Shown in pieces: positions 2,104-17,613 of a DNA stretch of 64,000 nt. The translations under genes were made by a program, and so were the position numbers. Each line of letters starts with the position of its first letter. The stretch's first letter is position 1. The DNA is taken from contig CAVYRS010000001.1 of assembly GCA_963770995.1 (NCBI GenBank), positions 502,815-566,814 of the forward strand, given 5' to 3'. The stretch comes from an uncultured Acidobacteriota bacterium (GTDB lineage Bacteria > Acidobacteriota > Vicinamibacteria > Vicinamibacterales > CAVVIG01). The notes under the pieces were generated by a model, which did no database searches, was not told the origin of the DNA, and worked only from the letters and a program-made list of their open reading frames with translations.

Positions 2104-3024
2104 CTACTGCTGGCGAACGGTATCCTTCGCCGCCGCCTTGCCGGTGAAGCTGATGATCGCGAACTTGGGCTGCACTTCAGCGACCGCGCCGTCGCCGGTG
2201 CGCTTCTCGTCGGCGCCCAGCTTCGCGCCGGTGGCCGGGTCGACCAGCGCTTCGCCGATGTTGAAGACGGCGAACTTGTCGCCCACCTTGATCCCGCCTT
2301 CGGAGCCGAGGTTGATCCACGCACGGTTCCCTTCGACCTTGATGATCAGGCCTTCGAGCTTGCCGGACGGGTTGTTGGCCGTGCCGAGGCGCGCGAGGTA
2401 CTCGCCGGTCGTGAATTTCGCGACGAGATCCTTGGCCGTCTTCTGAATCGTCTCGCTGGCGATGCCCCACTCGGAGTCGCGGCTCAGGCTGGCGCCCTTC
2501 ATGAAGCCGCCGCCCTTCTTGACCTCGCCGTCGGCCGACAGCGACAGCACGCGCTCGGCGGTCGTCGAGTCGATCAGCCGCATGTTGATCGTCGCCTTCG
2601 ACTGGACCATGGCGCCGCCGATGCCGCGGAAGCCGCCGCCGGTCTTGTCGATGTTGAACTTGTCGATCCCGCCGAGCAGGATGTATTTGACGCCGAGGAT
2701 CTTGCCGACCTTGGCTGCTGAAGCCGGGTCCACCGCGCCCGATGCGCCGAGTCCCTGCTCCTTCAGCACGAGCGCGAGCTTGTCACGCTCGACGACGGAG
2801 AACTTGTCCGAGAGCATCTTGTTCTCGGAAAACTCGGTATCGATGGTGTTCCGCGCCGCCGGCCCCATCTCGTTGTGGAACCACCACGTGGTCGCAGCGT
2901 GGTTCTCGAACTCCCAGATTGCGATCTTGATCTTGGCCTGCGCGAACCCGGACACCGGCAGCGCGAGGACCAGGGCCACGCTGGCCGCCAGACATCGGAG
3001 CGTCTTTCTCATGATGCACCTCAT
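2104..3024 (-). CDS. CsgG-like periplasmic/outer-membrane assembly protein (curli-secretion CsgG family)
   Basis: 306 aa with a signal peptide (LAASVALVLALPVSGFAQA). CsgG-like core: AIWEFENH..., LGASGAVDPASAAKVGKILGVKYILLGGIDKFN. Its ATG (3024-3022) overlaps the TGA (3023-3021) of the upstream PP2C gene. Confidence 0.8.
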   Translation of the reverse strand: MRCIMRKTLRCLAASVALVLALPVSGFAQAKIKIAIWEFENHAATTWWFHNEMGPAARNTIDTEFSENKMLSDKFSVVERDKLALVLKEQGLGASGAVDPASAAKVGKILGVKYILLGGIDKFNIDKTGGGFRGIGGAMVQSKATINMRLIDSTTAERVLSLSADGEVKKGGGFMKGASLSRDSEWGIASETIQKTAKDLVAKFTTGEYLARLGTANNPSGKLEGLIIKVEGNRAWINLGSEGGIKVGDKFAVFNIGEALVDPATGAKLGADEKRTGDGAVAEVQPKFAIISFTGKAAAKDTVRQQ

Positions 3025-3782
3025 CGAGCGTTGGTATAACGAGCTAAAAGGACCGTGACGTTGTCGCGCCCGTTCAGATCGAGCGCCGATTGAATCAACC
3101 GATCGGCGGCCTTTCCGAGATCAGGCTCTTCCTGCAGCGTTTTCTGTATCACGTCGTCGCCAATCACCCCGTGCAGGCCGTCCGTGCACATCATCAGGGT
3201 CTGGCCGTCCTCGAGGTCGAGCTCGTGTACGGTGACGTCGAGCTCGAAGCGAGCGCCGACCACGTTGGTGAGGACGTGGTGCATGGGATGCTTCTTCAGC
3301 GTCGCGGCGTCCACGCCGGTTTCCTCACTCAGCATGGTCACCCACGAATCGTCGCGTGTGAGTTGTCGGATGCTCGAACCGACGAGCGAATAGAGCCGGC
3401 TGTCGCCGACGCTCGCGAAGGTCAGACGACAGCCTTCGACCAGCGCCATGACGACCGTCGTGCCCATGCCATTGTACTCAGCGCGTTCCTGGCCGGCGCT
3501 GAAGATCTGCCGGTTGGCGACCTTGACCGCGTTGAGCAGCCGGTTCTCCGTCATCGAGAGCGCGGCATTCAGACCGTAGGCAAAGGTCACGTCCGGAGAC
3601 TGCGCGCTCTTCCGCAAGAACTCCTGGGCGGCGTCGATCGCCACGCGGGAGGCCACTTCGCCCGCGTTGTGGCCGCCCATGCCGTCGGCAATCGCCAGCA
3701 GCGACAGGTCGGGATCCCAGAGGACCGAGTCTTCGTTTGTCGCGCGCGGTCCCGGGTTGGTCCGCGTTTCCACTGTGAGCAT
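3021..3782 (-). CDS. PP2C-family Ser/Thr protein phosphatase
   Basis: MLTVETRTNPGPRATNEDSVLWDPDLSLLAIADGMGGHNAGEVAS...MMCTDGLHG...GRDNVTVLLARY. I chose the internal ATG at 3782 by domain boundary; the track ORF extends to 3857. Confidence 0.9.
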   Translation of the reverse strand: MLTVETRTNPGPRATNEDSVLWDPDLSLLAIADGMGGHNAGEVASRVAIDAAQEFLRKSAQSPDVTFAYGLNAALSMTENRLLNAVKVANRQIFSAGQERAEYNGMGTTVVMALVEGCRLTFASVGDSRLYSLVGSSIRQLTRDDSWVTMLSEETGVDAATLKKHPMHHVLTNVVGARFELDVTVHELDLEDGQTLMMCTDGLHGVIGDDVIQKTLQEEPDLGKAADRLIQSALDLNGRDNVTVLLARYTNAR

Positions 3783-3930
3783 CGAGGGAGTCCTGTCGCC
3801 TGCGAGCGGCGCGGCGAGCGACAGTATCATACCGCCGGTGCGCAAATAGACGACCAATCCATGTCGGCACTCCCCCTCGCATCCTGTATCGGATCGGCCG
3901 ATAAACCCCTTCAGAAAGGCCTGCGAGCGA

Positions 3931-3974
3931 CCCCGAATTCCGGGGGGTTTCCCCGAATTGCTGACCCCGGAATT
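3931..3974. promoter_or_regulatory. three direct CCCCG(G)AATT repeats in the divergent PP2C/PP2C control region (candidate operator)
   Basis: CCCCGAATT at 3931-3939 and 3951-3959; CCCCGGAATT at 3965-3974. The first copy is part of the near-palindrome CCCCGAATTCCGGGG. They lie between gene starts at 3782 (-) and ~4067 (+). Confidence 0.3.
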
Positions 3975-4066
3975 GCCACTAAAGTGGTATTGTTTTGGGT
4001 CTCCAGACTCTTAGTCGCTCCTATGATCCACTCGAGCCGTCTGTCGAAGCGTACGCGAGGTCTCTT

Positions 4067-4834
4067 GTGATACGAGCCTGTGGCATATCCGATACAGGGA
4101 GGGTTCGTAAATCGAACGAAGACAAGTTCGTCTCGGACCCGGAATTCCGCCTGTTTGCCGTCGCCGACGGCATGGGCGGACATAGCGCGGGCGAGGTCGC
4201 GTCGGGCCTGGCGATCGAAACGCTCCAGGGTTTCATCCATCGCTCGTCGAACGACACCGATTTCTCCTGGCCGTACGGCCTCGACAAGACTCTGTCGTTC
4301 GACGGCAATCGCCTGCGGACGGCGGTGCACCTCGCCAATCGCCGCGTGTTCCGGGCGGCCGAGAGCAGCGACGACTACGGCGGCATGGGCACCACCATCG
4401 TCGGCATGCTCATCGCCGAAGAACGGATCTCGGTCGCGCATGTCGGCGACAGCCGCGTCTATCTGCTCTCCAACGATCATCTCGCGCAGTTGACGTTCGA
4501 CGACACCTGGGCGGCGACGATCCTGGCGCAGGATCCGAGCCTGGATCCCGCGGAAATCGCGCGCCACCCGATGCGCAACGTGCTCACCAACGTGCTCGGC
4601 GCTCGCGACCATGTCGACGTGCATCTGACGGAGTGTCCGGTCAGCGACGGCGACATCCTGCTGCTGTGCACCGACGGCCTGCACGGCGTGCTCGATGCCG
4701 ATTCGCTCAAGGCCCTGCTGGAGAAAAGCTCGGACGTCGAAGCCACGGCGCGCAGCCTGATCGACGCCGCGCTCGACGGCGGCGGCCGCGACAACGTCAC
4801 GGCCCTCGTCGTGCGCTACGAGGGTGCCTCGTGA
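4067..4834 (+). CDS. PP2C-family Ser/Thr protein phosphatase (start uncertain: TTG 3995, TTG 4064 or GTG 4067)
   Basis: VIRACGISDTGRVRKSNEDKFV...FAVADGMGGHSAGEVAS...LLLCTDGLHG...GGRDNVTALVVRYEG. The TGA at 4832-4834 overlaps the GTG of the next gene. Confidence 0.9.
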   Translation: MIRACGISDTGRVRKSNEDKFVSDPEFRLFAVADGMGGHSAGEVASGLAIETLQGFIHRSSNDTDFSWPYGLDKTLSFDGNRLRTAVHLANRRVFRAAESSDDYGGMGTTIVGMLIAEERISVAHVGDSRVYLLSNDHLAQLTFDDTWAATILAQDPSLDPAEIARHPMRNVLTNVLGARDHVDVHLTECPVSDGDILLLCTDGLHGVLDADSLKALLEKSSDVEATARSLIDAALDGGGRDNVTALVVRYEGAS

Positions 4835-6120
4835 GCACGACCGCGGGCACCGGCACCCCCGCCGACAAGCTGCCGCCGACCATCGGCCGCTACCGCGTCG
4901 TCGAACGGATCGGCACCGGTGCGATGGGCATGGTGTACGCGGCCGACGACGACACGCTAGGACGGCGGGTGGCGGTGAAAGTGATGATGGGCGACCTCGA
5001 GGACGAGCCCGAAATGCGTGGGCGATTCTTCCGCGAGGCGAAGATCACGGGGCAACTCGCCCACCGCAACATCGTCACCGTGTTCGATCTCGGCGAGGAG
5101 AATCACCATCCGTACATCGTGATGGAGCTGCTCTCGGGTCTGGCGCTTCCGGAGTTTCTCGCCGCGTCCGCCAAGGTGTCGCTGGACGTCAAGATCGACT
5201 TGATGATGCAGGTCTGCGAGGGGCTCCAGGCCGCGCACAGCAAGGGCGTCGTGCATCGCGACGTGAAGCCGAGCAACCTGTTCGTGCAGCACGACGGCAG
5301 CGTGAAGATCCTCGACTTCGGCGTCGCGCGGCTGGCCTCATCGAATTTGACGAAGCACGGATTTCTGGTCGGCACGCCGGAGTTCATGTCGCCCGAGCAG
5401 GCGCGGGGCGCGGCGGTCGACGCGCGCTCGGACGTGTTCTCGGCGGCCGGCGTGTTCTATTTCATGCTCTCGGGCAATGGACCGTTCTCGTCGCCCGATC
5501 TGCCGAAGATGCTGCGCGCGGTGATTCAGGACAACCCGCCGCCGCTCACCGAGGCCCAGGCGCCTGAACCGCTCCGGCGCGTGCTGATGAAGGGACTCTC
5601 GAAGGCGCCGGCCGATCGCTATCAGCAATGCATCGACATGCAGGCCGATCTCGCCAAGGTCCGTCGCTCGGAGGGCGGTGTCGCGCACCGCTACGCCCAG
5701 GCTGCGCTGGATCGCTACCGGCAGGTCGTGGCAACCATCGAGGAGCGCCGGGCACTCGGCCAGTCGCTGGGCCGGACCGACATCGATCGTGCCGCCGCAA
5801 CCGCTCTCGCCCGGCTGGCGGCGCGGTTTCCGGAGTTCGCGAAGCACACCGATCCGCATGCGCTGATGGAGCCGTTGGATTCCGCCGTCGCTCAGGAAGC
5901 GTTGTCGTCGCTGCAGACGCGTCACAACGCCGAGCTCGCATCGCTGGAAGCATTGAAAATGGAGGCCGGCGCCGCGCGCGCGCGCGGGGCGGCAGCCGAG
6001 CAGATCGATTTGACGCTGCACCGCGGGGGCATCAACGTCGAACCGTCGGCCGATCCTGAAGCGCCCTCGTCGCTCAAGAACCGCGCCGCCGCGCTGTGGC
6101 GCAAGCTCGGGGGAACGTGA
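4831..6120 (+). CDS. Ser/Thr protein kinase (Hanks type), cytoplasmic, with helical C-terminal region
   Basis: GTG 4831 in a GTGA overlap. Motifs: GRYRVVERIGTGAMGMVYAA, VAVKVM, HRDVKPSNLF, ILDFGVAR, GTPEFMSPEQ. The first 66 codons of the track ORF 4633.. overlap the PP2C gene and are Arg-rich junk. Confidence 0.9.
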   Translation: MSTTAGTGTPADKLPPTIGRYRVVERIGTGAMGMVYAADDDTLGRRVAVKVMMGDLEDEPEMRGRFFREAKITGQLAHRNIVTVFDLGEENHHPYIVMELLSGLALPEFLAASAKVSLDVKIDLMMQVCEGLQAAHSKGVVHRDVKPSNLFVQHDGSVKILDFGVARLASSNLTKHGFLVGTPEFMSPEQARGAAVDARSDVFSAAGVFYFMLSGNGPFSSPDLPKMLRAVIQDNPPPLTEAQAPEPLRRVLMKGLSKAPADRYQQCIDMQADLAKVRRSEGGVAHRYAQAALDRYRQVVATIEERRALGQSLGRTDIDRAAATALARLAARFPEFAKHTDPHALMEPLDSAVAQEALSSLQTRHNAELASLEALKMEAGAARARGAAAEQIDLTLHRGGINVEPSADPEAPSSLKNRAAALWRKLGGT

Positions 6121-7349
6121 GTCGAAAGCTGATCGTTTCCGACGGCCGCCGGCAACGCGAGTTGCTGATCGTCAGCAAGATCGTGGTCGGTCGTGATCCG
6201 ACGTGCGATCTGAGCGAAGCGGATCCCCTGCTGTCCCGCCGACACGCCGAATTTGCGATTTCCGGCGACGATGTCGTCGTGCGCGATCTCGGCAGCCGGA
6301 ACGGCATCTACATCAACGGCGCCCGGACGGCGGAAGGCACGCTCCAATCGGGTGACGTCGTCCGCATCGGCCGCCTGCACATGCGCTACATCGAAGACAG
6401 CGCGCCGCTGGTTGCGGTGCCCGAGCTCGTCGACGACGCGACGGGGCTGGTGATTCCCGGACCCCGACCGGGAACGCCCCAGCCACCGCCGGCCGCAGCA
6501 CCCATGTCTGCCGGCGCATTCGGTGCGAGGCCGCAGCCCGCGGCTCCGTTCGCGTCGAAATCGAACCCGATGCCGTCACCGCCTCCATCCACTGAGGCTG
6601 ACGTCGATTTGACGTCGTACGTGTCGCCGTCTGCCTTCCGGAAACCGCCGTCAGGCGTCTCGGGATCGTCCATCAAGAAATCACAGCCGGCAGCAGCCGC
6701 GGCGCCGCCCGCGGGCGACGAAGTCGAATCGACCCGTGTCGTTCCGGCGCCTGGACGCAGCGGTCTGCGTCCGCCGCTCGCTCCGCTGGCGAAGTCCGGT
6801 GTGAAGCCGCCGGCGGCGCCGCCCATCGGCACGTCGGTGCTGCCGCCGCCCGTGCCGCTGAGGGAAGACGAGCTCACGTCGTACGTGACGCCGCGTCCGC
6901 GAACGTCGGTGCAAGCCCCGCCCGCACCGGATCGCACGCTGGCGGTGCCACCGCCGACGCCTCTGGTCGAGCACACGGCCGTGCACGCGCCGCCGGCGCC
7001 GCCCGCGATGCACACCGCCGTGCAGCCGCCTCCCATGCCAGCGGTCGTTCACACGGCTGTGCAGCCGCCGCCATCGCCGGCGGTTGAAGACATGGACGAG
7101 CCGACGTCGGTCATCTTGATGCCGCGTCCCAAGACACAGGTAGGATCTGACTCCCGGGCTCACGCACTGGCGACGACGGTTGCAGCGGTCGTCACGTTTC
7201 TTGGACGCTTACCGAATGGCGAGCGTGCGGCGGAGGCGGTCAGACTGCTGGAGCGCGATCTCGTGGCAGCGGCACCTCCGGCTGATCTCGTAGACACGTT
7301 GAACGGACTGGCGGCGCGCGTGAGCGCGGCCGCGAACGAGCTCACATGA
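6117..7349 (+). CDS. FHA-domain protein with long Pro-rich region
   Basis: GTG 6117 in a GTGA overlap with the kinase stop. FHA signature: IVVGRDPTCDLSEADPLLSRRHAEFAISGDDVVVRDLGSRNGIYINGARTAEGTLQSGDVVRIG. Confidence 0.85.
   Translation: MSRKLIVSDGRRQRELLIVSKIVVGRDPTCDLSEADPLLSRRHAEFAISGDDVVVRDLGSRNGIYINGARTAEGTLQSGDVVRIGRLHMRYIEDSAPLVAVPELVDDATGLVIPGPRPGTPQPPPAAAPMSAGAFGARPQPAAPFASKSNPMPSPPPSTEADVDLTSYVSPSAFRKPPSGVSGSSIKKSQPAAAAAPPAGDEVESTRVVPAPGRSGLRPPLAPLAKSGVKPPAAPPIGTSVLPPPVPLREDELTSYVTPRPRTSVQAPPAPDRTLAVPPPTPLVEHTAVHAPPAPPAMHTAVQPPPMPAVVHTAVQPPPSPAVEDMDEPTSVILMPRPKTQVGSDSRAHALATTVAAVVTFLGRLPNGERAAEAVRLLERDLVAAAPPADLVDTLNGLAARVSAAANELT
6969..7085 (+). repeat. 3 x 39-nt in-frame tandem repeat inside the FHA gene
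   Basis: Units 6969-7007, 7008-7046 and 7047-7085 encode EHTAVHAPPAPPA / MHTAVQPPPMPAV / VHTAVQPPPSPAV. The units differ partly at synonymous sites (acg/acc, gcc/gct). Confidence 0.85.
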
Positions 7350-8836
7350 CACCTCTTCTGGTGATTCGCGATGCGGACGGCTCGGAGCGCACGGTCGAAC
7401 TGCGCGACGGCGTCATGCGGATCGGCCGGGCGGCGGGCAACGAGATCGTGATTGGCGACGCGAGCAAAGGTGTCTCGCGCACGCATGCCGAGCTGCACGT
7501 CGAGAACGGCCGGTGCACGATCGTCGACTTGCACAGCCAGAACGGCACCTGGGTCAACGCGCTGCGCGTGCAGCGCGCGGAAGTGCGACCCGACGCGGAG
7601 ATTGCCATCGGCGTGTTCCGGCTTCGCGTCAGCGGAGGGACGACGAATATTTCGGCGACGGGTCATCCGGCGCCACGGCCACAGCCGGCGACGATCGTCG
7701 CGCCGCGGCCGCCATCGGTCGCGGAGCCAGTCCCGCCGCCGATGCCCTCACCCCGCGGGACCGTCAGCGATCTTCCGTTGATGGCGGCGCACGGCGTGAC
7801 CAGCCCGGTGCCGATACCGACGATCCCGCAACCGGCGCCGCAGGCTGTTGTCGCTCCGGCGGCGAAGCCGAAACGCTCATCGCTGCCGTTCATCTACGTC
7901 GGCATCGGGGCCGTCGCGATGATCGCGCTGGCCGTCGCGTTGTTCAGCCTTCCGCAGAAACCATTGGGCAGGCCTCAGGCGCCCGCGCAGGCCCCGTCAG
8001 CCCAGGTTCCCGCAGCGCCACCCGCATCCGCGCCGCAGCCTCCACCCGCCGCGCCAAGTCCCGCCGCGGCCCCGACGCCAGCCGCCGCTCCACCGCCCGC
8101 GCCCCCGACCGACGGGCCGGGACGCGCCCGACCTGCGACGCGGCAGCCGACGCCACGACGCGCCGCCGCGCCAACGCCACGACCGGCCAGTCCGGCGCCG
8201 AGCGCGCCCGCGGGCAGCCGAAACGCGCCGCCGGCGCCGTCCGGTAGCGCACGAGGGCGAGTTGGTGCGGTCACACCAGGTTCCGCGGTGCGCACGGCCG
8301 CCGAGAATCTTCCCGTTCCGCGGAAGCCTGGCGAGTCGCTGCAGGATTGGCAGGCGCGCAGCTCGGCGCTGCAGGCGCGCTACTCGTTCGCGAAGGTCGC
8401 ACTCGAGCGCGGCGACTTCGCCGCAGCGTCCGGCGGATTTGCCGCGATCCTGCTCGAGGAGCCCGGGTTCCTCGATGCGCCGCAGTTGCTGGTCAGAGCG
8501 CGCGAGGGCCTGCGCGCAGCCGCCGTGGAGACGATTGAGGCGGGCAACAAGCTCGACGCAGCGGGCGATTCGATTGGCGCGCTCAAGAAGTACGACCAGG
8601 CGCGCGAGATCGATCGCGGAGCGCCGGGGCTGGACGAGGCGGTCAGGCGCGTGCGCGACAAGATGCGCGTGGCCGGTACCGCTGCCCTCAGACGCGCGCG
8701 CCAGTTCGACGCGCTGGGCCGTTTCGCCGATGCGCTGGCCGAGTACGAGAAGGCGGCGCAGTGGCTCTCCCCCGAGGATCCGAACCAGCAGATCGCGCGC
8801 GGCCGGGCCGATCAGCTGAAGGCGAGGCAGCGATGA
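7346..8836 (+). CDS. FHA-domain protein with one TM helix, Pro/Ala-rich spacer and helical (TPR-like) C-terminal domain
   Basis: ATGA overlap at 7346-7349. FHA: MRIGRAAGNEIVIGDASKGVSRTHAELHVENGRCTIVDLHSQNGTWVN. TM: FIYVGIGAVAMIALAVALFSL. The C-terminus is helical and repeat-like. Confidence 0.85.
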   Translation: MTPLLVIRDADGSERTVELRDGVMRIGRAAGNEIVIGDASKGVSRTHAELHVENGRCTIVDLHSQNGTWVNALRVQRAEVRPDAEIAIGVFRLRVSGGTTNISATGHPAPRPQPATIVAPRPPSVAEPVPPPMPSPRGTVSDLPLMAAHGVTSPVPIPTIPQPAPQAVVAPAAKPKRSSLPFIYVGIGAVAMIALAVALFSLPQKPLGRPQAPAQAPSAQVPAAPPASAPQPPPAAPSPAAAPTPAAAPPPAPPTDGPGRARPATRQPTPRRAAAPTPRPASPAPSAPAGSRNAPPAPSGSARGRVGAVTPGSAVRTAAENLPVPRKPGESLQDWQARSSALQARYSFAKVALERGDFAAASGGFAAILLEEPGFLDAPQLLVRAREGLRAAAVETIEAGNKLDAAGDSIGALKKYDQAREIDRGAPGLDEAVRRVRDKMRVAGTAALRRARQFDALGRFADALAEYEKAAQWLSPEDPNQQIARGRADQLKARQR

Positions 8837-9450
8837 CTCGCCTTCGCGCCTGGGTCGTCGCAGCACTCGCGATCGGCGCGACGGCGGCCGCGGCGTCGCC
8901 CCTGTCGGCGCAGGAGCCGGTGCCGCCGGCGGCGGGTGAGTACGGCCGCGCGGCAAAGCTCGAGAGCGTGGTCTTCGAAAGCGCGAACAAACAGATCCGG
9001 TTCGAGTACCCGAAGCGGGACTGGGAAATCGTGCCGCGGGCCGGCGCCGCGATGATTCCCGGCGCCACCTCCCCCATCGTGTCGCTGGTCCAGCGCAAGC
9101 GCGAGGCGGCGGTGGTCGTCGAGCAGACGAAGCTGCATCAGCCGCTCGCGCTCGACGACATCACCGATCTCCTCAGCCAGCTCGAGATGGATTCGCTGCG
9201 CGAGCGCCAGCCGCAGGCGAGCGACGTGAAGGCCAAGCTGGTGGAGGCCGGCGGCCGGCGGTTCGTCATCCTGACCTACGCCCGCCAGGGCGTCGGTGGT
9301 CCCGAGCGCGTTCGCCAGTATTCGTTTGCCGCCGGCGCCGATCTGTTTCGCCTGACGTGCGTCGCGGCGGCCTCGCAGTTCGCCCGGTACGAACCGGTTT
9401 TCGCCCACGTCGCGGCCTCGTTCACCGTGACCGCCGGCGGCACTCAGTGA
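8833..9450 (+). CDS. exported hypothetical protein (possibly PsbP/DcrB-like fold)
   Basis: Internal ATG at 8833 forms an ATGA overlap with the preceding stop. Signal peptide MTRLRAWVVAALAIGATAAAASPLSAQE. The fold suggestion is weak. Confidence 0.65.
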   Translation: MTRLRAWVVAALAIGATAAAASPLSAQEPVPPAAGEYGRAAKLESVVFESANKQIRFEYPKRDWEIVPRAGAAMIPGATSPIVSLVQRKREAAVVVEQTKLHQPLALDDITDLLSQLEMDSLRERQPQASDVKAKLVEAGGRRFVILTYARQGVGGPERVRQYSFAAGADLFRLTCVAAASQFARYEPVFAHVAASFTVTAGGTQ

Positions 9451-9457
9451 GGGATTC

Positions 9458-11232
9458 GTGAACACGAGGAACGACCCGTCCCAGATCGGACGGTATCAGG
9501 TCATCGAGCGCGTCGGCAAAGGCGGGATGGGTGTGCTCTTCCGCGGCATGGATCCGGTGCTCGATCGCGAGGTGGCGATCAAGCTGATGCTGGTCGACTT
9601 CTCCGAGGACGAGGAGCAGCTGCGCCCGCGTTTCTACGTCGAGGCCCGCGCCGCCGCCAAGCTCCAGCATCGCAACATCGTCACGGTGTTCGAGTTCGCG
9701 GAAGAAGGCAACACGCCGTACATCGTGATGGAGTTCCTGCGCGGCACGAGCCTGGCCGCGCGCATCGTGTCGCCGCTGCCGCTGTCGCTCGACGCCAAGC
9801 TCGACATCATCGCGCAGTTGTGCGACGCGCTCCATTACGCGCACGAACAGGGCGTCGTGCACCGCGACGTGAAGCCGGCGAACGTGTTCCTCCTCACCGA
9901 CGGGACGGTCAAGCTGCTCGACTTCGGCATCGCGAAGATGACCTCGTCCGGCGCTGACCCGTCAGGGCGACGTCCTCGGCAGCGCGTCGTACATGTCGCC
10001 CGAGCAGGTGCGCGGCAGCGACATGGTGGACGGCCGGGCCGACATCTTCTCGGTCGGCGTCGTCATGTACGAGCTGCTCGCCGGCCGCAAGCCGTTCGAG
10101 GCCGATCAGCCGACGGCGACGATCGTGAAGATCCTCAACGATCCGCCGCCGGCCATCGAGACGCTCGCGCCGGATCTGCCCGCACAGCTCGTCGCCGCCG
10201 TCAACCGTGCGTTGGCGAAGGATCCCGCCGAGCGCTACGCGACGGCCGGCGAGCTGAGCAAAGAGCTGCAGTGGATCCGGCGAGCGCTTGGCGCCGCCGG
10301 CGAAGGCGCGCCGCTCGAGGAAACGCGGTTCGCGTCGCCGACCGAGATCCGTTCGTTCCAGGCCGAGCTGGACAAACACGACAGGAAGTCCGCCACCGGA
10401 TCGCGCGCGGCCGCCGGCGTGGCGCCGCCGGCGACCGCGACGCCCAAGTGGGTGATCCCGGCAGCCGCAGCGGCAGTGGTCGTCGTCGGCGGGCTCGCCG
10501 CGATGCTGATGCTCGGACGCGGTTCGGACACGACCGCGGCCTCGGCGACGCCCACGGCAGCGGCCACTCCGGCCGCCGGCGCCGAAATCACCCGCCCCGG
10601 CAAATGCCGGTGTGGACGGCGCGACCCTCAAGGTCTCGTCGGAACCGACCGGAGCGTCCATCATTCTCGACGGGCGCGACACGAAGCAGGCGACGCCCGC
10701 GTCGATCACGCTCCAGGGCGCTGGTCCGCACCGGCTGCAGCTGACGAAGCGCGGATTCGTCAGCAAGACCGTCAACCTCGAAGCGCAGGACGTGAGCAGC
10801 GGCGCGGTCAACTACACGCTCGAAGAAGCGAAGGTCGTGATCGTCCCCATCGCCATCTCCAGCGCCTACCCGGTGGAGGTCTTCGAGGGCGGGAAATCGA
10901 TCTCGAAACCGAGCGACAGCCATCAGCTGAAGCTTCAAGCGGGCACGACGATCCGCGTGAGGAACCCGGAGTACCTGCTGGACGCCTCCGTCCGGGTCGA
11001 CGGCAAGACCGACTATCAGGCGCCGGCGCTCGGCTACCTGAGCGTGCTCACCCGATACGAGACGTGCAACGTCAAGATTGGCGCGAAGGATCTGGGCTAT
11101 CCGCCGATCACCAAGATGCCGCTCGTCGTCGGGCAGTACAAGGTCGATATCGTGTGCCCCGCCGGACAGAGTCCCAACGGGCAGTTCGTCACCATCGCGC
11201 CGAACAGCACCGCAGTCGCGAGGATCCAATGA
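9458..11232 (+). pseudogene. Ser/Thr kinase - TM - PEGA domain gene interrupted by two frameshifts
   Basis: The N-lobe and catalytic loop lie in the frame of 9458 (GKGGMGVLF, VAIKLM, HRDVKPANVF, LDFGIAK) and turn to junk after ...AKMTSSG. The activation segment, C-lobe and TM lie in the frame of 9993, which opens after TGA 9939-9941 (LTRQGDVLGSASYMSPEQ..., WVIPAAAAAVVVVGGLAAMLML). The PEGA domain lies in the frame of 10612, which opens after TGA 10507-10509 (ATLKVSSEPTGASIILDG...LQLTKRGFVSK), and ends at TGA 11230-11232. Confidence 0.8.
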
Positions 11233-12713
11233 AGCTGCAGTTCATGGTTGTTGCATCGCTCCTGCTGGCCGCCTCGCTAGGCGCCCAGTCGCCGCGCGAA
11301 GAAGAACTGGCGCGCAGTCAGTACCAGAGCGGCCTCGACTTTCTCCAGAGCCGGCGATACGCGGAAGCGATCAAGGATTTCCAGGCCGTCGTCGACTCCT
11401 TCCCGAAGAGCTCGGTGGCCGACGCCGCGCTGGTCCAGATCGGGATGTACCAGCTCGACGTCGCCCGCAACCCGGAGGCGGCGCAGGCTGCGACTGACAA
11501 GTTGCTGAAGGAATATCCGAGCGGTGCCGCCGCGCCAATGGCCTACGTCATGGCCGGGCGGCTGGCGATCACCAAAGGCCGCGCCGCAGCGGATGTCGAG
11601 GCGGCGATGGCCAGCTTCGAGCGCGTGTCGCGCCTCTTCCCGGGCTCGGAGGCGGTCGCGGCCGCGAATCACTACGCCGGCATCGCGCTGTGGCTGGTCC
11701 GCCGCAATGAGGAAGCGCTCGACCGGTTCCGGCGCGTGACGATGGAGTATCCGCGATCGATCTGGTCGGCGCGCGCGACCCTGGCCGCGGCCGTGGTGCT
11801 GGTGCAGACGGATCGCGCCATGCGCGCCCTCGAGGAACTGCAGCGCGTCCGCCTGCAGTTCGCGGGCACGCCGGAAGCGGCGACCGCGCTCAACTTCAAC
11901 ACGATCATCTACCGCCTCTACGTGCGTCCGCCGCAGCCCTCATACGCGTTCAGCGGCAAGTACATCGGGGCCGAAACCGCGAAGTTCCGCGATGTCGTCG
12001 GCGTCACCGTCAACGATGCCGGCCAGATCATCCTGGGTCATAAAACCGGCATCTCCGTCTTCGATGCCAAGGCGGCGCTCGTGAAGACGGTCACCGCCGA
12101 GGAGCCGTCGGCGTTTTTCACGGACGAGAAAGGTCGGCTCGTTACTGTCCGGCGCGACACGCTGGTGGCCGAGGGCGGCGACTACGCCGCGATCAGCATC
12201 CCGCAGAAGGACGGCAAACTGCGGCCGGCCGACGAAATCCCGTCGGTGCTCCCGCTGTCGAACGGCGACCGCCTCATCTCGGATCGCAAAGGCAAAGCCG
12301 TGATCCGCGTGGCGATCAACGGCAAGTACCTCAAGAACTTCGCAACGCTCAACGCCGAGCGCATGGTCATGAACCAGCTCGAAGACGTTGCGATACTGGA
12401 CAAGGACACCAAGTCGGTGGTGGTCGTCGATCGCGAAGGCAAGCAGCTGATCAAGATTCTGCCGAAGGGCACCGGCTACGAGCTCGACAACCCGGTGGAT
12501 GTGGCGTTCGATCCGTTCGGCAACATCTACGTCCTCGAGCGCGGCAAGCCGGCCCTGCATGTCTTCAATCCGAAGAACAAGCTGCTGGCGAGCTTCAGCA
12601 TGCCGGAGAAGGACCCGGGGTCGTTCCCCCGCCCGCAGGCGTTCGGGCTCGACGGCGCCGGCCGCGTGTACTTGTTCGATGATCGGTCGCAGCGCATCCA
12701 GGTGTATCAGTAA
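11229..12713 (+). CDS. exported protein: N-terminal YbgF/BamD-like TPR region plus C-terminal NHL-type beta-propeller repeats
   Basis: ATG 11229 in an ATGA overlap with the PEGA stop. Signal peptide MKLQFMVVASLLLAASLGAQS. TPR-like YQSGLDFLQSRRYAEAIKDFQAVVDSFPKS. NHL-like VDVAFDPFGNIYVLERG...LDGAGRVYLFDDRSQRIQVY. This is the last third of the chimeric track ORF 9993..12713. Confidence 0.8.
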   Translation: MKLQFMVVASLLLAASLGAQSPREEELARSQYQSGLDFLQSRRYAEAIKDFQAVVDSFPKSSVADAALVQIGMYQLDVARNPEAAQAATDKLLKEYPSGAAAPMAYVMAGRLAITKGRAAADVEAAMASFERVSRLFPGSEAVAAANHYAGIALWLVRRNEEALDRFRRVTMEYPRSIWSARATLAAAVVLVQTDRAMRALEELQRVRLQFAGTPEAATALNFNTIIYRLYVRPPQPSYAFSGKYIGAETAKFRDVVGVTVNDAGQIILGHKTGISVFDAKAALVKTVTAEEPSAFFTDEKGRLVTVRRDTLVAEGGDYAAISIPQKDGKLRPADEIPSVLPLSNGDRLISDRKGKAVIRVAINGKYLKNFATLNAERMVMNQLEDVAILDKDTKSVVVVDREGKQLIKILPKGTGYELDNPVDVAFDPFGNIYVLERGKPALHVFNPKNKLLASFSMPEKDPGSFPRPQAFGLDGAGRVYLFDDRSQRIQVYQ

Positions 12714-14857
12714 TGCTCAGACGAAAGTTCGTCCTTGTACTCGTCCTGCTGGCGGCCTTTGCGCCGGTCTGTCCTGCACACGCGCAGGCGGTGGATCCCC
12801 AGTTCTCCGAAGCCAAGCGGCTGTTCGATTCGTTGGACTACGATGCCGCGCTGCGCGCGCTGGACCTGGCGATCTCGGGCCTCGAAGCGAAACCGTTGCA
12901 GGATCCCGCCAGGCGCGAGCTGCTGCCGGGCGCGTACGAGATGCGGGCGCGCTCGAAGTTCGGCCTCGGCGATCAGGACGGCGCGCGCGCCGATTTCATC
13001 GCGCTCCTGAAGATCAACGCCGGCCACGCCTTGACGGGTCAGGTGTCGCCGCGCGTGGTGGCGCTGTTCGAGGAGGCCGTCAAGAACTCGGTCACCAGCG
13101 TGAACCTCTCAGTCACGCCGCCGAGCGCGAAGATCGCGATCGACGGCACCCCCGTGCCCGCCAGCGCCACGCTGCCGGTCACCATCGGCGAGCATACGAT
13201 CACCGCCGAGCAGCCCGGTTACCGCAAGGTGCAGCAGGCGTTCACCGCCGAAGCGGGCGCGCCCGCGACCGTGACCCTGACCCTCGAGCGCGTGTCGTCG
13301 GTATTGAACATCTTGACGACGCCGTCGGACGTCGACGTCTCGATCAACGGCGTGAAGCGCGGAAAGACCGCGGCCGGTCCGCCGCCCCCGGCGTTTGCGG
13401 AGGCAATCGCCCGCGCGAAGGTGACGCCGGCGCAGGTGTCGGCGGTGATGGTGGTCCCCGACATGCCGGCCGGCACGCACGTGATCGAATTCACGCGCGA
13501 CTGCTACGTCAAGGCCGAGAGGCGTCTGCCGATCGACAAGCCGGACGACTACACGGTGGGACCGATTCCACTCGAGCATGCGGTCGCCAGCTTGAACGTG
13601 CGCGCGAACGATCCCCGCGCGCAAGTGGTGGTCGATGGACAGAATCGCGGCTCCGCGCCGTTCAGCACGACCGATCTGTGCGAAGGCGAGCACACGGTGG
13701 AGCTGCGATCGCAATCGGGCCGCTTCTTCAAGCGCGTGCAGGCCCGGACCGGCGACAAGCTGACGGTCGACGGCGTCCTGAAGCCGGCGTTCGCCCTGCT
13801 CTCGGCGTTCGGCGGGCAGCCTGGCGGCTCGGATTTGCGGCTGGCCGTCGAGCGCCTGTTCGATCCGGCCGTCTCGGTGACGCTGTTCGCCCCGCCTGGA
13901 GACCAGGTTGATCAAGCGCTTCGCGCGAACCAGCTGCAACCCGGGTGGCTGGCGTTCGATGCCAACAAGCGGCCGATGGGCAACTCCACCGATCTGGTGC
14001 AGTCGATGCGCCGCGACCTCGGGCTCAAGCTCGCGTCGACGTTCGGGTCGCAGGGCGTTGCCGCAATCACGGTGATCGATCGAAACCGCGTGGTGCTGTC
14101 GATTCTGGCCGCCGGCAGCAACGACCCCGACGTGCTCGAGGTGAGCCTCGACAACGCCGATTCCGTGAGGCGCGCCATCGGCCAGCTCGATCGGTTGCCG
14201 GCCTTCTTCCGGCCCTCGATTGGGATGGTCTCTGTCGATGTGGCCGACGTGACCGGTGTCGTGGTCGGCGGCGTGGATGCGAACGGGCCGGCCGCGAAAG
14301 CCGGCATCAAGGTCGGCGACCTGGTGGTGAAAGCGAACAACCAGCCGATCGCGGACGCGGCGGCGCTCGCCGGCGCGCTGGCGTCCCGCAAGGCGAACGA
14401 CGACCTGAACATGGAAATCAAGGATCGCACCGGCGCCGTGAAGCAGGTCGCGGTGAAAGTGTCGATGACGCCGCGGCTGATCGGCATCTCGGATCAGAGC
14501 CTGCTGGTCAATGCGATCCTGGTGGCGCTGCGATCGCGGCTGCTCACGCCGTCGGAGCCATCCGAGGAAGCGGTGATACGCCTCAACCTGGCGGCTGCGC
14601 TCGCGCGCGTCGAGGCCTGGAGCGAGGCGCGCACGGAGCTGCAGAACGTCAAGTTGCCGGATGGCGCGGGCGTCGCCAACGGCACCGTGCAGTACCTGCT
14701 TGGCCTGTGCGCCGACCGCCTGGGGAATCGGGCCGACGCCGAAACCGCCTATCGAGCCGCGGCCGCGTCCGAGAGCCTGCTCACCGAAGACGGCCCGCCG
14801 GTGAGGGAGCTCGCGCAGGCGAAGCTCATGGAGCTGCAGCGGCGCTCGGGACTGTAG
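12713..14857 (+). CDS. exported multi-domain protein: TPR, 3 PEGA-like domains, PDZ, C-terminal TPR
   Basis: Its ATG overlaps the previous TAA (TAATG). Signal peptide LVLVLLAAFAPVCPAHAQA. PEGA-like segments: NLSVTPPSAKIAIDG...AEQPGY; LNILTTPSDVDVSINGV; LNVRANDPRAQVVVDGQNRG. PDZ: VVGGVDANGPAAKAGIKVGDLVVKANNQPI. Confidence 0.8.
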   Translation: MLRRKFVLVLVLLAAFAPVCPAHAQAVDPQFSEAKRLFDSLDYDAALRALDLAISGLEAKPLQDPARRELLPGAYEMRARSKFGLGDQDGARADFIALLKINAGHALTGQVSPRVVALFEEAVKNSVTSVNLSVTPPSAKIAIDGTPVPASATLPVTIGEHTITAEQPGYRKVQQAFTAEAGAPATVTLTLERVSSVLNILTTPSDVDVSINGVKRGKTAAGPPPPAFAEAIARAKVTPAQVSAVMVVPDMPAGTHVIEFTRDCYVKAERRLPIDKPDDYTVGPIPLEHAVASLNVRANDPRAQVVVDGQNRGSAPFSTTDLCEGEHTVELRSQSGRFFKRVQARTGDKLTVDGVLKPAFALLSAFGGQPGGSDLRLAVERLFDPAVSVTLFAPPGDQVDQALRANQLQPGWLAFDANKRPMGNSTDLVQSMRRDLGLKLASTFGSQGVAAITVIDRNRVVLSILAAGSNDPDVLEVSLDNADSVRRAIGQLDRLPAFFRPSIGMVSVDVADVTGVVVGGVDANGPAAKAGIKVGDLVVKANNQPIADAAALAGALASRKANDDLNMEIKDRTGAVKQVAVKVSMTPRLIGISDQSLLVNAILVALRSRLLTPSEPSEEAVIRLNLAAALARVEAWSEARTELQNVKLPDGAGVANGTVQYLLGLCADRLGNRADAETAYRAAAASESLLTEDGPPVRELAQAKLMELQRRSGL

Positions 14858-14861
14858 TCTC

Positions 14862-15128
14862 GTGTCGGACACCTGCGCGCATATCGACGCGATCACGAGC
14901 GTCAAACATCCCGTGCGCCGCGAGTGCGCGGAGTGCGTGAAGACGGGCGCGCGCTGGATGCACTTGCGCACGTGTCAGACCTGCGGCACGACGCTCTGCT
15001 GCGACTCGTCCCCCAACCGCCACGCCAGCAAGCACGCGCGCGCAAGCGACCATCCGGTGGTCGCGTCGGCCGAACCGGGCGAACAGTGGCTCTACTGCTT
15101 CGCCGATGACGCGTTCGCCGAGTACTGA
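14862..15128 (+). CDS. UBP-type zinc-finger (Znf-UBP) domain protein
   Basis: 88 aa, GTG start 4 nt after the previous stop. Cys/His pattern CAHID...CAECVKTGARWMHLRTCQTCGTTLCCDSSPNRHASKHA...HP. Confidence 0.8.
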   Translation: MSDTCAHIDAITSVKHPVRRECAECVKTGARWMHLRTCQTCGTTLCCDSSPNRHASKHARASDHPVVASAEPGEQWLYCFADDAFAEY

Positions 15129-15130
15129 TT

Positions 15131-16972
15131 TCAGTCGACGCCGAAAGCCAGCAGGACGTTGCCCGGCCGCAGGCCGAAGGCGCCGTAGCCGGAGCTCACA
15201 TAAACGCGCCCGCCGGCGACAACGGGCGCCGGCCCGTACATCGATCCGCCCCTGGCCTTCACGCGGTTGACGGTCGTGAACTCCCGGTTGCTGTCGAACG
15301 ACCACACCACCGCTCCGTCCGCCGTCGAGTGGGCGCGCGCGACGCCGTCGTTCGATGGGGAAAAGACGACGCCGCGAATCACTGTCACGGCGGAGAACAA
15401 CGCGCTGCTGCACGCGCGGCTCGGTTTGCCGCAGGCCGGCGCGGCGGGAGCCGCGAGCCACGCGCGATGGCCGGTTGCCAGATCGAGCGCGTGCAGCCCA
15501 CCGGGTTCCGGCGCGTAGATGTCGGCAATCGGAACGTACGCGTGCTGCCCGTCCGCGGCGACACCCCACTGCGTTCCGCCCAGTCCCGTTCCGACGCCGG
15601 CTCGATGGCGCCAGACGAGAGCGCCTTTCCGATCCGGATCGAGCGCGTAGGCCACGCCGGATTTCTGCCCGACAACGATCAGGTCGCGGCGCGGCGAGAC
15701 GGCAACGAGCGCCGGCGCGGCCCCGATGTCGAAGTCGGGTCCAGGCCGCTCGGCACAGTTGACGTCGCCGGGCACGCAGCCGAAGAGATCGTTCGGCGTC
15801 AGTTGATGCGTCCATCGCATGGCCCCGGTTTTCAGATCGAACGCGACGATCGCATCCGTCGTCGGCTGCGGCGGTCCGCTGTAGGAGTTGCCGACGCCGA
15901 CGTACAGCGCGCCGCGCTTGGCATCGATCGTCGGCGCCGACCAGATCGCGCCGCCAGACGGTCCCCACAACTCGGTGCCGTTCGCGTAGACACGCAGCAG
16001 TGTCGGCGGATCGGCAATGGTGTGGGTCTTCCACACTTCCTCTCCGGTGACGGCGTCGAGCGCGACGACGCTTCCCCGAAACGTGCAGCAGGGGTAGCCG
16101 GGCGCTCTGCCGCCTTCTTCGTAGGACGAAGTGGGCACGTACAGCCGGCCTTCATGCAGGGTTGGCGATCCTGTGAGTCTGACGAGCAGATGGTCGTCAA
16201 CCTTACGGCTCCATAAGAGCCGGCCATCGGATGCGTCAGCCGCGTAAACGTAGCCTTGTAGATCTGCGAAGTACGCCGCGTAACGGCGGGCGCTCCGGGC
16301 GACGCCGGGCGGACTCACCATACCAACCGAAATCGACGCGCGCACACCGGCGTGCGCTTCGAACGTCCATGCGATGCAGCCCGTTCGGGCGTCGAGCGAG
16401 TAGACGATGCCGTTCTGACCGCCGACGAACAGACGGCCGCCCGCAACCGTCGGCTGGGCCCATGCGGATGTCGTGTCCGGAAAGCCGAAGGCCCATTTCA
16501 AACGGAGGCGCGGCACCTGATCGGCGGTGAGGCCCGCCTGCGCGGCCGGTTGAAAGTGTGTGTTGCCGGGACCGGGCCCCCAGCCATTCCAGTGCGGGCC
16601 TGTCGCGGGATCCGTCATCGGCGGGATGCGCGGGCAGCGGCCGAGGGTGGCGCCGCTGACCGTTCCGCGCAGCGTTCGGCCCGTGATGAATTCGGCCACG
16701 GCGCGGCGTTCTGGTCCACTCAGCGCGAGTCCCTGGTAGCGCATGGAGCCGGACGTGAGCGCGTCCACGATCGCCTGCGGAGAACGGCCGCTCATCGCGT
16801 CCTGCGTCGGCGCGCGCGGATCGTCGCCGTCGTGACACGACTGGCAGGCCCGCTCGAAAATCGCCTGGCCGTCCACGGGCGCCGGTGCCGGTGCCGGTAT
16901 CTGCGCCAGCGCGGCGGCAAGGCACACGGCGGGCACGACCAGAAAGGGGATGACCAGACGGCTAGGGACCAC
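15131..16972 (-). CDS. cytochrome c domain fused to a PQQ-repeat (BamB-like) beta-propeller dehydrogenase-like protein
   Basis: 613 aa with a signal peptide and one CxxCH (ERACQSCHDG) at the N-terminus. Repeated propeller segments follow (GGRLFVGGQNGIVYSLDARTGCIAWTF, YVYAADASDGRLLW, VVALDAVTGEEVWK, LHALDLATGHRAW). Confidence 0.8.
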   Translation of the reverse strand: MVPSRLVIPFLVVPAVCLAAALAQIPAPAPAPVDGQAIFERACQSCHDGDDPRAPTQDAMSGRSPQAIVDALTSGSMRYQGLALSGPERRAVAEFITGRTLRGTVSGATLGRCPRIPPMTDPATGPHWNGWGPGPGNTHFQPAAQAGLTADQVPRLRLKWAFGFPDTTSAWAQPTVAGGRLFVGGQNGIVYSLDARTGCIAWTFEAHAGVRASISVGMVSPPGVARSARRYAAYFADLQGYVYAADASDGRLLWSRKVDDHLLVRLTGSPTLHEGRLYVPTSSYEEGGRAPGYPCCTFRGSVVALDAVTGEEVWKTHTIADPPTLLRVYANGTELWGPSGGAIWSAPTIDAKRGALYVGVGNSYSGPPQPTTDAIVAFDLKTGAMRWTHQLTPNDLFGCVPGDVNCAERPGPDFDIGAAPALVAVSPRRDLIVVGQKSGVAYALDPDRKGALVWRHRAGVGTGLGGTQWGVAADGQHAYVPIADIYAPEPGGLHALDLATGHRAWLAAPAAPACGKPSRACSSALFSAVTVIRGVVFSPSNDGVARAHSTADGAVVWSFDSNREFTTVNRVKARGGSMYGPAPVVAGGRVYVSSGYGAFGLRPGNVLLAFGVD

Positions 16973-17019
16973 GGAATCGAAAAACGATCATAACCGTGCA
17001 CGTGTAGAATCAGAGCGAA

Positions 17020-17598
17020 ATGCAACCACGAAGCCACGAAACCACGAAGAAGAACCGGTCTTTTTCGTGTCTTCGTGTTTTCGTGGTTGCGGTTGGGTTG
17101 GTGTCAGGTGGTGTAGGTACGGCGCAGACGCATCGGCTCCCGCAACCGGGCGTGCGCTACGTCCCGTCTCCACAGAGCGTCGTCGATGCGATGCTCGAGT
17201 TGGCGCACGTCACCTCAGCCGACGTCGTCTACGACCTGGGCTCTGGAGACGGCCGGATTCCGATCACTGCGGCGCAGCGCTACGGCGCGCGGGGTGTCGG
17301 CGTCGAGATCGAACGGCGGCTGGTGGCCGAGGCCGCGAGCAACGCGGCGAAGGCGCACGTGGCCGGCCTCGTCTCGTTCGTTCATGGAGACTTGTTCGAA
17401 GCCGACATCCGGCCGGCGACGGTGATCGCGATGTTCCTGCTGCCGCGGATGATCGACGAGCTCTTGCCGAAGTTCAAGCGCGATCTCCGGCCCGGAGCCC
17501 GCATCGTCTCGCACGGATACGACCTGGGTCCGAGTTGGCCGCCCGAACAGACGCGAGACGTCAGCGGCCTCACCATCCATCTCTGGACGATTCGATAG
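17020..17598 (+). CDS. class I SAM-dependent methyltransferase (start uncertain: ATG 17020 lies inside the repeat; TTG 17098 / GTG 17101 are alternatives)
   Basis: YVPSPQSVVDAMLELAHVTSADVVYDLGSGDGRIPITAAQRYGARGVGVEIERRL...FVHGDLF. The first ~24 codons (MQPRSHETTKKNRSFSCLRVFVV) are the translated hairpin element. Confidence 0.8.
   Translation: MQPRSHETTKKNRSFSCLRVFVVAVGLVSGGVGTAQTHRLPQPGVRYVPSPQSVVDAMLELAHVTSADVVYDLGSGDGRIPITAAQRYGARGVGVEIERRLVAEAASNAAKAHVAGLVSFVHGDLFEADIRPATVIAMFLLPRMIDELLPKFKRDLRPGARIVSHGYDLGPSWPPEQTRDVSGLTIHLWTIR
17022..17090. repeat. octamer-array hairpin element (CACGAAG class)
   Basis: GCAACCACGAAG-CCACGAAA-CCACGAAG, loop AAGAACCGGTC, then the inverse TTTTTCGTG-TCTTCGTG-TTTTCGTGGTTGC. 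It lies in a divergent 5' region. Confidence 0.9.
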
Positions 17599-17613
17599 GG
17601 ACGGAGGCGCCCG

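Follow-up and report, generated by a model that had tools for sequence, protein, structure and literature searches.

A probable operon for transmembrane Ser/Thr phospho-signalling in Vicinamibacterales, and the wider conservation of its exported protein pair in Acidobacteriota

A window of 64,000 nt from an uncultured soil bacterium of the Acidobacteriota (GCA_963770995.1, contig CAVYRS010000001.1, positions 502,815-566,814) carries a cluster of genes for Ser/Thr protein kinases, PP2C phosphatases, FHA-domain proteins and exported proteins, which are designated A to K in the order in which they lie along the window. An earlier reading made from the sequence alone, referred to below as the sequence-only reading, had described 2104-15128 as two divergent PP2C-led operons forming one cluster. 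Comparison with related genomes indicates a different conserved unit, one operon consisting of genes C to J (3995-14857), because A, B and K are not conserved neighbours of these genes. The unit is narrower in this genome than had been described and much wider in evolution, where a triad of kinase, I and J is found across Acidobacteriota. With modest confidence, C-J is regarded as one operon that encodes a transmembrane module for Ser/Thr phospho-signalling in Vicinamibacterales, in which the periplasmic ectodomain of the receptor kinase H would form the input together with the exported proteins I and J, and kinases, FHA proteins and a PP2C phosphatase would form the relay. This reading starts from the observed gene content, domain content, predicted topology and operon structure of the cluster, and from the finding that the triad H-I-J and the pair I-J are conserved.

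Genes and domains were called from a listing of the open reading frames (ORFs) of the window and Pfam profile scans of their translations, and topology was predicted from a hydropathy scan only. The first gene of the conserved operon, C (3995-4834, + strand), encodes a PP2C/PPM phosphatase (Pfam PP2C_2 E 5e-15, PP2C E 3.5e-11) and begins with a TTG start codon that is uncertain. Its PP2C_2 score of 56 bits and the 60 bits of a second phosphatase, B, exceed the cutoff of 24 and place both in the PPM/PP2C family. The motifs DGMGGH, TDG and RDN are readable in C, with the metal-binding Asp motifs visible, and the score of C against the NCBIfam Stp1/IreP equivalog is 219 bits, just under the cutoff of 230. 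Gene D (4831-6120, + strand) encodes a soluble Hanks-type Ser/Thr kinase, STK1 (Pfam Pkinase E 2e-46, 158.9 bits against a cutoff of 31.7), with the motifs GTGAMG, VAVK, HRDVKPSN and DFG, no hydrophobic segment and a helical C-terminal tail.

The two following genes encode proteins with N-terminal FHA domains that score above the Pfam cutoff of 20.7 bits. E (6117-7349, + strand; FHA E 5e-17, 62.6 bits) is a cytoplasmic protein with a long Pro-rich linker and no transmembrane segment, and keeps the residues GR, SRRH and NG. F (7346-8836, + strand; FHA E 2e-15, 57.6 bits) keeps GR, SRTH and NG, and its FHA domain is followed by one internal transmembrane segment (residues 182-200, hydropathy 2.53) and a helical TPR-like C-terminal domain that is predicted to be periplasmic. 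The orthologue of F in L034, the locus from the sister genome of the same genus, gives a weak SNAP/TPR-like match, and F is found solely in the full variants of the operon. G (8833-9450, + strand) is a small exported protein and a variable member of the operon, with a signal-like N-terminus, a PsbP match below cutoff (E 9e-4) and no sequence match in the PDB. Its orthologues occur in L041, L055, L056, L057 and L079 (L and G numbers are working labels for related loci and genomes, respectively), and that of L056 is a fusion with a TonB_C domain, as would suit a protein of the periplasm.

H (9458-11232, + strand) encodes the receptor kinase STK2, which consists of a kinase domain with the Hanks-type motifs GKGGMG, VAIK, HRDVKPAN and DFG, one transmembrane segment and a PEGA-type ectodomain. 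I (11229-12713, + strand) is an exported protein with a BamD/YbgF-like TPR region and an NHL beta-propeller (Pfam TPR_6, YfiO, TPR_19 and NHL). J (12713-14857, + strand) is an exported protein in which TPRs, three PEGA-type beta-sandwiches, a central domain, a PDZ domain and further TPRs follow one another (Pfam PEGA E 5e-17, PDZ_2 E 4e-12). Signal-like N-termini were found on A, G, I and J, and in translation the catalytic or binding motifs of the two kinases, the two PP2Cs and the two FHA domains are all intact. The genes and domains named in the sequence-only reading were thus recovered by the profile scans, and its assignment of exported and membrane proteins was borne out by hydropathy. 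The exception is the reading frame of H: the kinase, transmembrane and PEGA parts are all present, but they are not encoded in a single ORF in this assembly, as the Pkinase match is split between two frames and the PEGA match lies in a third.

The start and stop codons of successive genes overlap as GTGA at 4831 and 6117, as ATGA at 7346, 8833 and 11229, and as TAATG at 12711-12715. All six junctions named earlier are therefore present, but the fixed stoichiometry that had been deduced from them over-reads overlaps of 4 nt. The sole sizeable gap in the cluster is the intergenic region between the divergent genes B and C (3858-3994), which is presumed to contain the operon promoter; no sigma-70 consensus was found when this region was scanned. 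Terminator-like sites are at chance level, with 9 observed against 7.1 expected. As B is not conserved, 3858-3994 would be the operon's own upstream region in most relatives, rather than a shared divergent control region.

The conservation of the operon was followed in 41 related loci, which were fetched with an alignment of six J sequences and taken with 10-kb flanks, and onto which all window proteins were mapped. The contigs carrying these loci all belong to Acidobacteriota, and most are labelled Vicinamibacterales. The + strand order PP2C, STK (Ser/Thr kinase), FHA, (FHA-TM, TM being a transmembrane segment), (exported protein), STK-TM-PEGA, TPR/NHL, PEGA/PDZ/TPR was found in about 30 Vicinamibacterales species, so the gene order put forward in the sequence-only reading is conserved in relatives. 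STK-PEGA followed by I and then J occurs in 33 of the 41 loci, a PP2C gene occupies the position of C in 26, and FHA genes of the E or F type are present in 27. The full form PP2C-STK-FHA-FHA(TM)-(G)-STK/PEGA-I-J is seen in the window, L034, L046, L051, L052, L069 and L079. A short form with one FHA gene and a kinase of about 280 amino acids (aa) is seen in L042, L043, L047, L048, L050, L059 and L071. Reduced forms consist of PP2C-STK/PEGA-I-J (L064) or PP2C-I-J (L070), and in L061 and L063 the STK is fused to a TM/TPR tail. The 4-nt overlaps C/D, D/E, H/I and I/J recur in the loci of many relatives, and in 24 of the 41 loci the earliest in-frame start codon of J is found 3 nt ahead of the end of I. 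A JGI metagenome contig with called genes carries the same eight genes in the same order. In two Vicinamibacterales relatives among these loci (L056:3688-5526 and L057:4034-5884), the FHA genes and G are separated by a gene for a PilB/GspE-type ATPase (T2SSE E 2e-115, MshEN), and neither locus gave a PP2C match.

Beyond Vicinamibacterales, an even sample of 201 Acidobacteriota genomes was searched. Full-length homologues of J (about 700-750 aa, 20-35% identity) are present in 85 of them. In at least 57 of the other 84 J-positive genomes, J is immediately preceded by an I-like gene in the same orientation, as counted by eye from the positions of the J and I matches. For most of the remaining J-positive genomes, the count is limited by contig ends or by the matches listed. 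A profile search put the size of the J family at about 1016 clusters (50% identity, E<=1e-30), most of which have the same length. Regions from five distant genomes were annotated. G096, from the same class and another order, has RodZ, HEAT, DnaJ-TPR, PP2C, STK-PEGA, I and J, while G079, G083 and G080, from other families in the phylum, have STK-PEGA, I and J, and G082, likewise from another family, has I and J only. A search for kinases located one directly upstream of I-J also in G035, G042, G108, G180, G208, G058 and G197, and a kinase with a PEGA ectodomain precedes I-J in several classes.

The element upstream of the pair is not always a kinase. In Holophagae (L081, Geothrix rubra, and L082, a Holophaga sp. 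metagenome-assembled genome (MAG)), a HEAT-repeat protein of about 895 aa is followed by I, J and a 131-aa ORF, and no kinase is present. A smaller HEAT protein is encoded upstream of PP2C-STK-I-J in G096 (L083), beside RodZ and DnaJ-TPR, and HEAT proteins may thus be another recurrent partner of I-J. In L035, the gene before I-J (7384-8481, + strand) encodes a TIR_2 domain (E 6e-22), one transmembrane segment and an ectodomain 42% identical to that of H. This locus is a natural kinase-to-TIR swap, in which the ectodomain, I and J are constant and the cytoplasmic domain has been exchanged. Of the comparative evidence, the joint retention of ectodomain, I and J across this swap speaks most strongly for a common role of the periplasmic parts as an input. 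The deep core of the system is the exported pair I-J, usually accompanied by a membrane protein with a PEGA ectodomain.

For the propeller of I, sequence matches in the PDB were to the NHL domains of TRIM71 and TRIM2, with a weaker match to the NHL sensor of Mycobacterium tuberculosis PknD (1RWI), and for its N-terminal TPRs to BamD, YbgF and CpoB. Its scores lie below the curated cutoffs of these families (ybgF 76.9 against 90.1 bits, BamD 65.6 against 81.4 bits, CpoB 34.7 against 383 bits), so I is not assigned to any of them. An AlphaFold2 model of J has a mean predicted local distance difference test (pLDDT) score of 88.9 and clear domain boundaries, comprising a signal peptide, TPR helices (residues 29-126), three beta-sandwich domains (127-366), an alpha/beta domain (375-492), a PDZ domain (499-587) and further TPR helices (599-713). 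Both in sequence and in fold, the nearest relatives of this PDZ domain are those of DegP, DegQ, DegS and RseP, and a fold search with the whole chain returned solely PDZ/HtrA and Ig-like repeat matches. J contains no trypsin-like protease domain; the Do-family model TIGR02037 gives 39 bits against a cutoff of 416 and matches the PDZ region only. Weak phmmer extensions had raised the idea that residues 411-510 are a degenerate half of an HtrA protease, which was rejected as the model is alpha/beta there. The central region of J (residues 366-498, window 13808-14206) is a conserved alpha/beta domain that was modelled alone at pLDDT 92. No significant fold match to it was found in the PDB with Foldseek (best E 0.12), and on the basis of the model it may be an undescribed fold.

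The interrupted reading frame of H bears on whether the module works in this organism. H is read in three frames, from 9458 to about 9950, from about 9951 to about 10590, and from about 10591 to 11232. The first contains the kinase N-lobe up to DFGIAKMTSSG (Pkinase profile positions 1-152, 113.9 bits). The next (+1) frame continues from about 9950 as (A)LTRQGDVLGSASYMSPEQ... and contains the rest of the kinase and the transmembrane segment (Pkinase positions 156-253, 42.7 bits), and the third, shifted by another +1, contains the PEGA ectodomain (E 1.6e-13). At the first site, around 9949-9951, a DNA alignment shows one extra base, the window having TCCGGCGCTG where three orthologues have TCC-ACGCTG; the second change falls in a variable C/G-rich linker near 10585-10605. 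In relatives, H is a single ORF; most loci have one of 558-611 aa, a few distant ones reach 619-637 aa, and the range in other classes is 672-762 aa.

To measure how often frames change in this genome, uninterrupted ORFs of related short-read MAGs were aligned to other DNA and the splits between frames were counted. In this genome, 21 frame switches were found in 140 kb of aligned conserved coding DNA (1.5 per 10 kb), compared with 2 in 186 kb of short-read MAG loci (0.11 per 10 kb) and 30 in 120 kb of long-read-style 'contig_' MAG loci (2.5 per 10 kb). The rate is 14-fold over that of the short-read MAG loci and within the range of the long-read-style MAGs, and about two frame switches are expected at this rate in a cluster of 13 kb. 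The source genome (G000) amounts to 9.3 Mb in 5 contigs with an estimated completeness of only 84%, which fits an indel-rich assembly; the GC content in this region of it is 63-74%. Given the single ORF in relatives and the high genome-wide rate, the breaks in H are probably assembly indels, a conclusion held with good confidence from the sequence comparison, and the system is then probably intact in the organism. It is unlikely that H is instead a genuine pseudogene of this strain, with two real frameshifts and a module that is decaying or running on the soluble kinase D alone. Two frame changes within 1.8 kb of one gene, the position of the first outside any long homopolymer, and the accessory nature of an operon that is patchy among relatives would suit such decay. 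On the other hand, each of the three segments of H forms an open, conserved stretch in its own frame (identity to the sister genome 90%, 64% and 70%), the number of breaks is what the genome-wide rate predicts for the cluster, and the seven other genes of the operon (C-G, I and J) are intact. Other broken genes of this genome are to be read with its rate of about 1.5 apparent frameshifts per 10 kb in mind.

In the signalling reading of the operon, the PEGA-type ectodomain of H and the exported proteins I and J would form a periplasmic sensor complex for an envelope cue. Such a cue could be a C-terminal peptide that binds to the PDZ domain of J, or a ligand recognised by the propeller of I. As is known for these protein families, the ligand state would control autophosphorylation of H, and H would probably cross-talk with D. 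Phosphothreonines on H and D would then be read by the FHA proteins E and F, again by analogy with their families. As F is predicted to span the membrane and to put its helical domain back in the periplasm, it may carry information back there, while the PP2C phosphatase C would reset the system. The envelope-linked phospho-relay put forward in the sequence-only reading is thus in keeping with the conservation pattern.

Actinobacterial fhaA-fhaB-pstP-rodA-pbpA-pknA-pknB: The signalling toolkit is the same in this cluster and in the operon, with two Hanks kinases (one a receptor), two FHA proteins (one membrane-anchored) and one PP2C, and PknB/Stk1 is the best-scoring model for the kinase domains, as Stp1/IreP is for the PP2C. 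In contrast, no PASTA match was found here, and the PknB_PASTA_kin model gives 289 and 326 bits against a cutoff of 450, through the kinase part only. The operon has no rodA or pbpA, all ORFs in 3995-14857 being accounted for by other domains, and the actinobacterial FhaB model gives 44-49 bits against a cutoff of 125, the FHA domains here being N-terminal. The sensor consists of a PEGA-type ectodomain and two separately encoded exported proteins, and the host is a diderm acidobacterium. The contrast with this cluster drawn in the sequence-only reading is accordingly fair for gene content, but it does not extend to the signalling toolkit.

H1 type VI secretion system (T6SS): In Pseudomonas aeruginosa, the receptor kinase PpkA of the H1-T6SS is activated via the separate periplasmic and outer-membrane proteins TagQ/R/S/T, with the PP2C phosphatase PppA as antagonist and the FHA protein Fha1 as reader. 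This is the closest parallel in logic, as a receptor kinase, separate accessory proteins, a PP2C and an FHA protein are likewise combined. However, the PpkA ectodomain is vWA-like and that of H is of the PEGA type, the accessory proteins are unrelated, and the T6SS model TagH (TIGR03354) gives 30.2 bits against a cutoff of 120. T6SS genes are absent from the window region and from the related loci. An Fha-TssL case of T6SS threonine phosphorylation has also been described (PMC3953482).

PknD and DegS/DegP: M. tuberculosis PknD also has an NHL beta-propeller in the extracytoplasmic input of a Hanks kinase (PDB 1RWI), whereas the propeller here is located in a separate exported protein fused to TPRs and not in the kinase chain. 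The closest counterparts of the J PDZ domain include those of the sigma-E pathway proteins DegS and RseP and of DegP, all sensors of outer-membrane protein stress. In these three proteins and in DegQ, the PDZ domain binds the C-termini of unassembled outer-membrane proteins. Unlike DegS and DegP, J is without a protease domain, and a signal would pass via the kinase rather than by regulated proteolysis.

Several observations weigh against the signalling reading. J is present in only 13 of 41 close-relative genomes, and from this patchy presence the operon is accessory; the gene content between the PP2C gene and H also varies. No output gene, such as one for a transcription factor or an enzyme, is encoded in the operon. 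I and J are only presumed to touch the ectodomain of H, and since PDZ, TPR, PEGA and NHL are generic interaction modules, any ligand proposed for them is a guess. As I-J also exists in Holophagae and G082, where no kinase accompanies it, the pair has its own function, which may be something other than sensing. The main alternative, which is possible though rather doubtful, takes I-J to be an autonomous module for envelope maintenance or assembly, of the outer-membrane or peptidoglycan/Tol-type accessory kind, that is regulated or monitored by kinase, FHA and PP2C proteins in some lineages. I and J would then be co-regulated effectors or clients rather than ligand-binding co-receptors. In line with this, kinases are missing in the two lineages just named, with the HEAT-repeat protein and the small ORF in their stead in Holophagae, the N-terminal TPRs of I resemble BamD and YbgF/CpoB, the G096 operon adjoins genes for RodZ, HEAT and DnaJ-TPR proteins, and the J family is large with a constant full-length architecture. 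Yet the kinases are cytoplasmic and I and J exported, so that the latter cannot be direct substrates after export. Moreover, the PEGA ectodomain co-varies with I-J and is kept even when TIR replaces the kinase, which points to contact in the periplasm, and I remains under the curated BamD and YbgF cutoffs.

Two further explanations carry far less weight than the signalling reading. The resemblance to PpkA/PppA/Fha1 with TagQRST extends to a receptor kinase, a PP2C, an FHA protein and periplasmic accessory proteins upstream of the kinase, and could suggest a threonine-phosphorylation switch of a secretion or pilus machine encoded elsewhere. The FHA proteins give weak TagH and YscD-like matches, and the PilB/GspE-type ATPase of L056 and L057 lies within the gene order. 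Such a switch is nevertheless highly improbable, as neither the window nor most of the 41 loci have a secretion-system gene in or beside the operon, the TagH match reaches about a quarter of its cutoff (30 against 120 bits), and the ATPase is confined to only two loci. It is barely credible that the operon is an anti-phage defence system with a kinase or a TIR domain as its basis. The kinases do match the PADLOC kinase models PD-T4-6 and mad6, and one relative has TIR in place of the kinase, but the matches cover the generic kinase domain only, and C has a weak match to a candidate model (PDC-M21C, E 1.2e-11). None of E, F, G, I, J, A and K matched a PADLOC defence model. In addition, the I-J pair is vertically conserved across the phylum in stable contexts rather than in defence islands, and half of the proteins are exported.

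In soil, Acidobacteriota rank among the most abundant bacteria. Their genomes encode many Hanks kinases with no known role, and to our knowledge almost nothing is known of how they sense their envelope or surroundings. Full-text searches of the literature returned no paper on PEGA-domain kinases with FHA proteins, nor on such clusters in Vicinamibacteria. The comparison presented here identifies a concrete conserved unit, in which a receptor kinase is tied to two dedicated exported proteins. About 40% of the Acidobacteriota genomes sampled have this exported pair, and the kinase-to-TIR swap marks the ectodomain, I and J as its constant input part. It also provides a confidently modelled new domain in J that is without a solved structural relative, and a bounded set of interactions that can be tested, while no general principle of bacterial Ser/Thr signalling is changed. 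A broader proposal, put forward only tentatively and with more doubt than confidence, is that the triad of a PEGA-ectodomain membrane protein, a TPR/NHL protein and a TPR/PEGA/PDZ protein is a phylum-wide, undescribed envelope-surveillance system of Acidobacteriota, in which I-J would report the state of the outer membrane or cell wall via an exchangeable cytoplasmic output domain. If so, the triad would be a functional counterpart of DegS/RseA-sigmaE, Cpx or Rcs. Most lineages would use a Hanks kinase as the output domain and one would use TIR, and the full relay of kinases, FHA proteins and PP2C would have grown in Vicinamibacterales.

The genes on either side lie outside the conserved unit. 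B (3021-3857, - strand) encodes the second PP2C (Pfam PP2C_2 E 3e-16), a paralogue of C with 47% identity, which among the 41 loci is present only in L034. A (2104-3024, - strand) encodes an exported protein with a CsgG domain (Pfam CsgG E 9e-20, 71.3 bits against a cutoff of 20.8, profile positions 5-154 of 210). Its C-terminus is FlgT_C-like, with a borderline score of 26.7 bits against a cutoff of 27, and an LpoB-like match is weak and below cutoff. A and B overlap by ATGA at 3021-3024 and are translationally coupled here. Orthologues of A with 59-67% identity were found in six relatives (G008, G017, G019, G031, G037 and G039), either on contigs other than that of the operon or in genomes without J. 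The idea of a PP2C-CsgG pair conserved elsewhere was rejected; in the three loci examined (G008, G017 and G031), no PP2C gene lies upstream of the A orthologue. As the minus-strand PP2C occurs only within the genus and its CsgG-like partner is unlinked elsewhere, the two divergent PP2C-led operons do not hold together as one cluster. A has the CsgG domain of the curli lipoprotein CsgG, but its N-terminus (...LALPVSGFAQAKIK) is without a lipobox cysteine at the cleavage site, and no curli genes (csgE/F/A/B) are nearby, the neighbours of A being a PP2C gene and a pirin gene.

On the other side, K (14862-15128, + strand), 5 nt after J, encodes a small zf-UBP protein (Pfam zf-UBP E 2e-11) that had been counted as a member of the operon. 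L034, from the sister genome, is the one locus among the 41 with such a gene after J, at a distance of about 1 kb, and in L079 and L080 a beta-lactamase gene takes its place after J, so its membership is not maintained. Right after K, the window contains at 15131-19958 a cytochrome-c-fused pyrroloquinoline quinone (PQQ) dehydrogenase on the - strand and then a second PQQ dehydrogenase on the + strand, which are unrelated to the operon and not conserved beside it in relatives. Among the related loci, the records of L043, L047 and L060 (CAZOAZ010000004, CAYLTD010000001 and CALQBJ020000136) are titled 'uncultured Bifidobacterium sp.' or 'Bifidobacterium breve'. These labels look wrong, because the loci carry the Vicinamibacterales operon in full synteny, with J at 51-53% identity.

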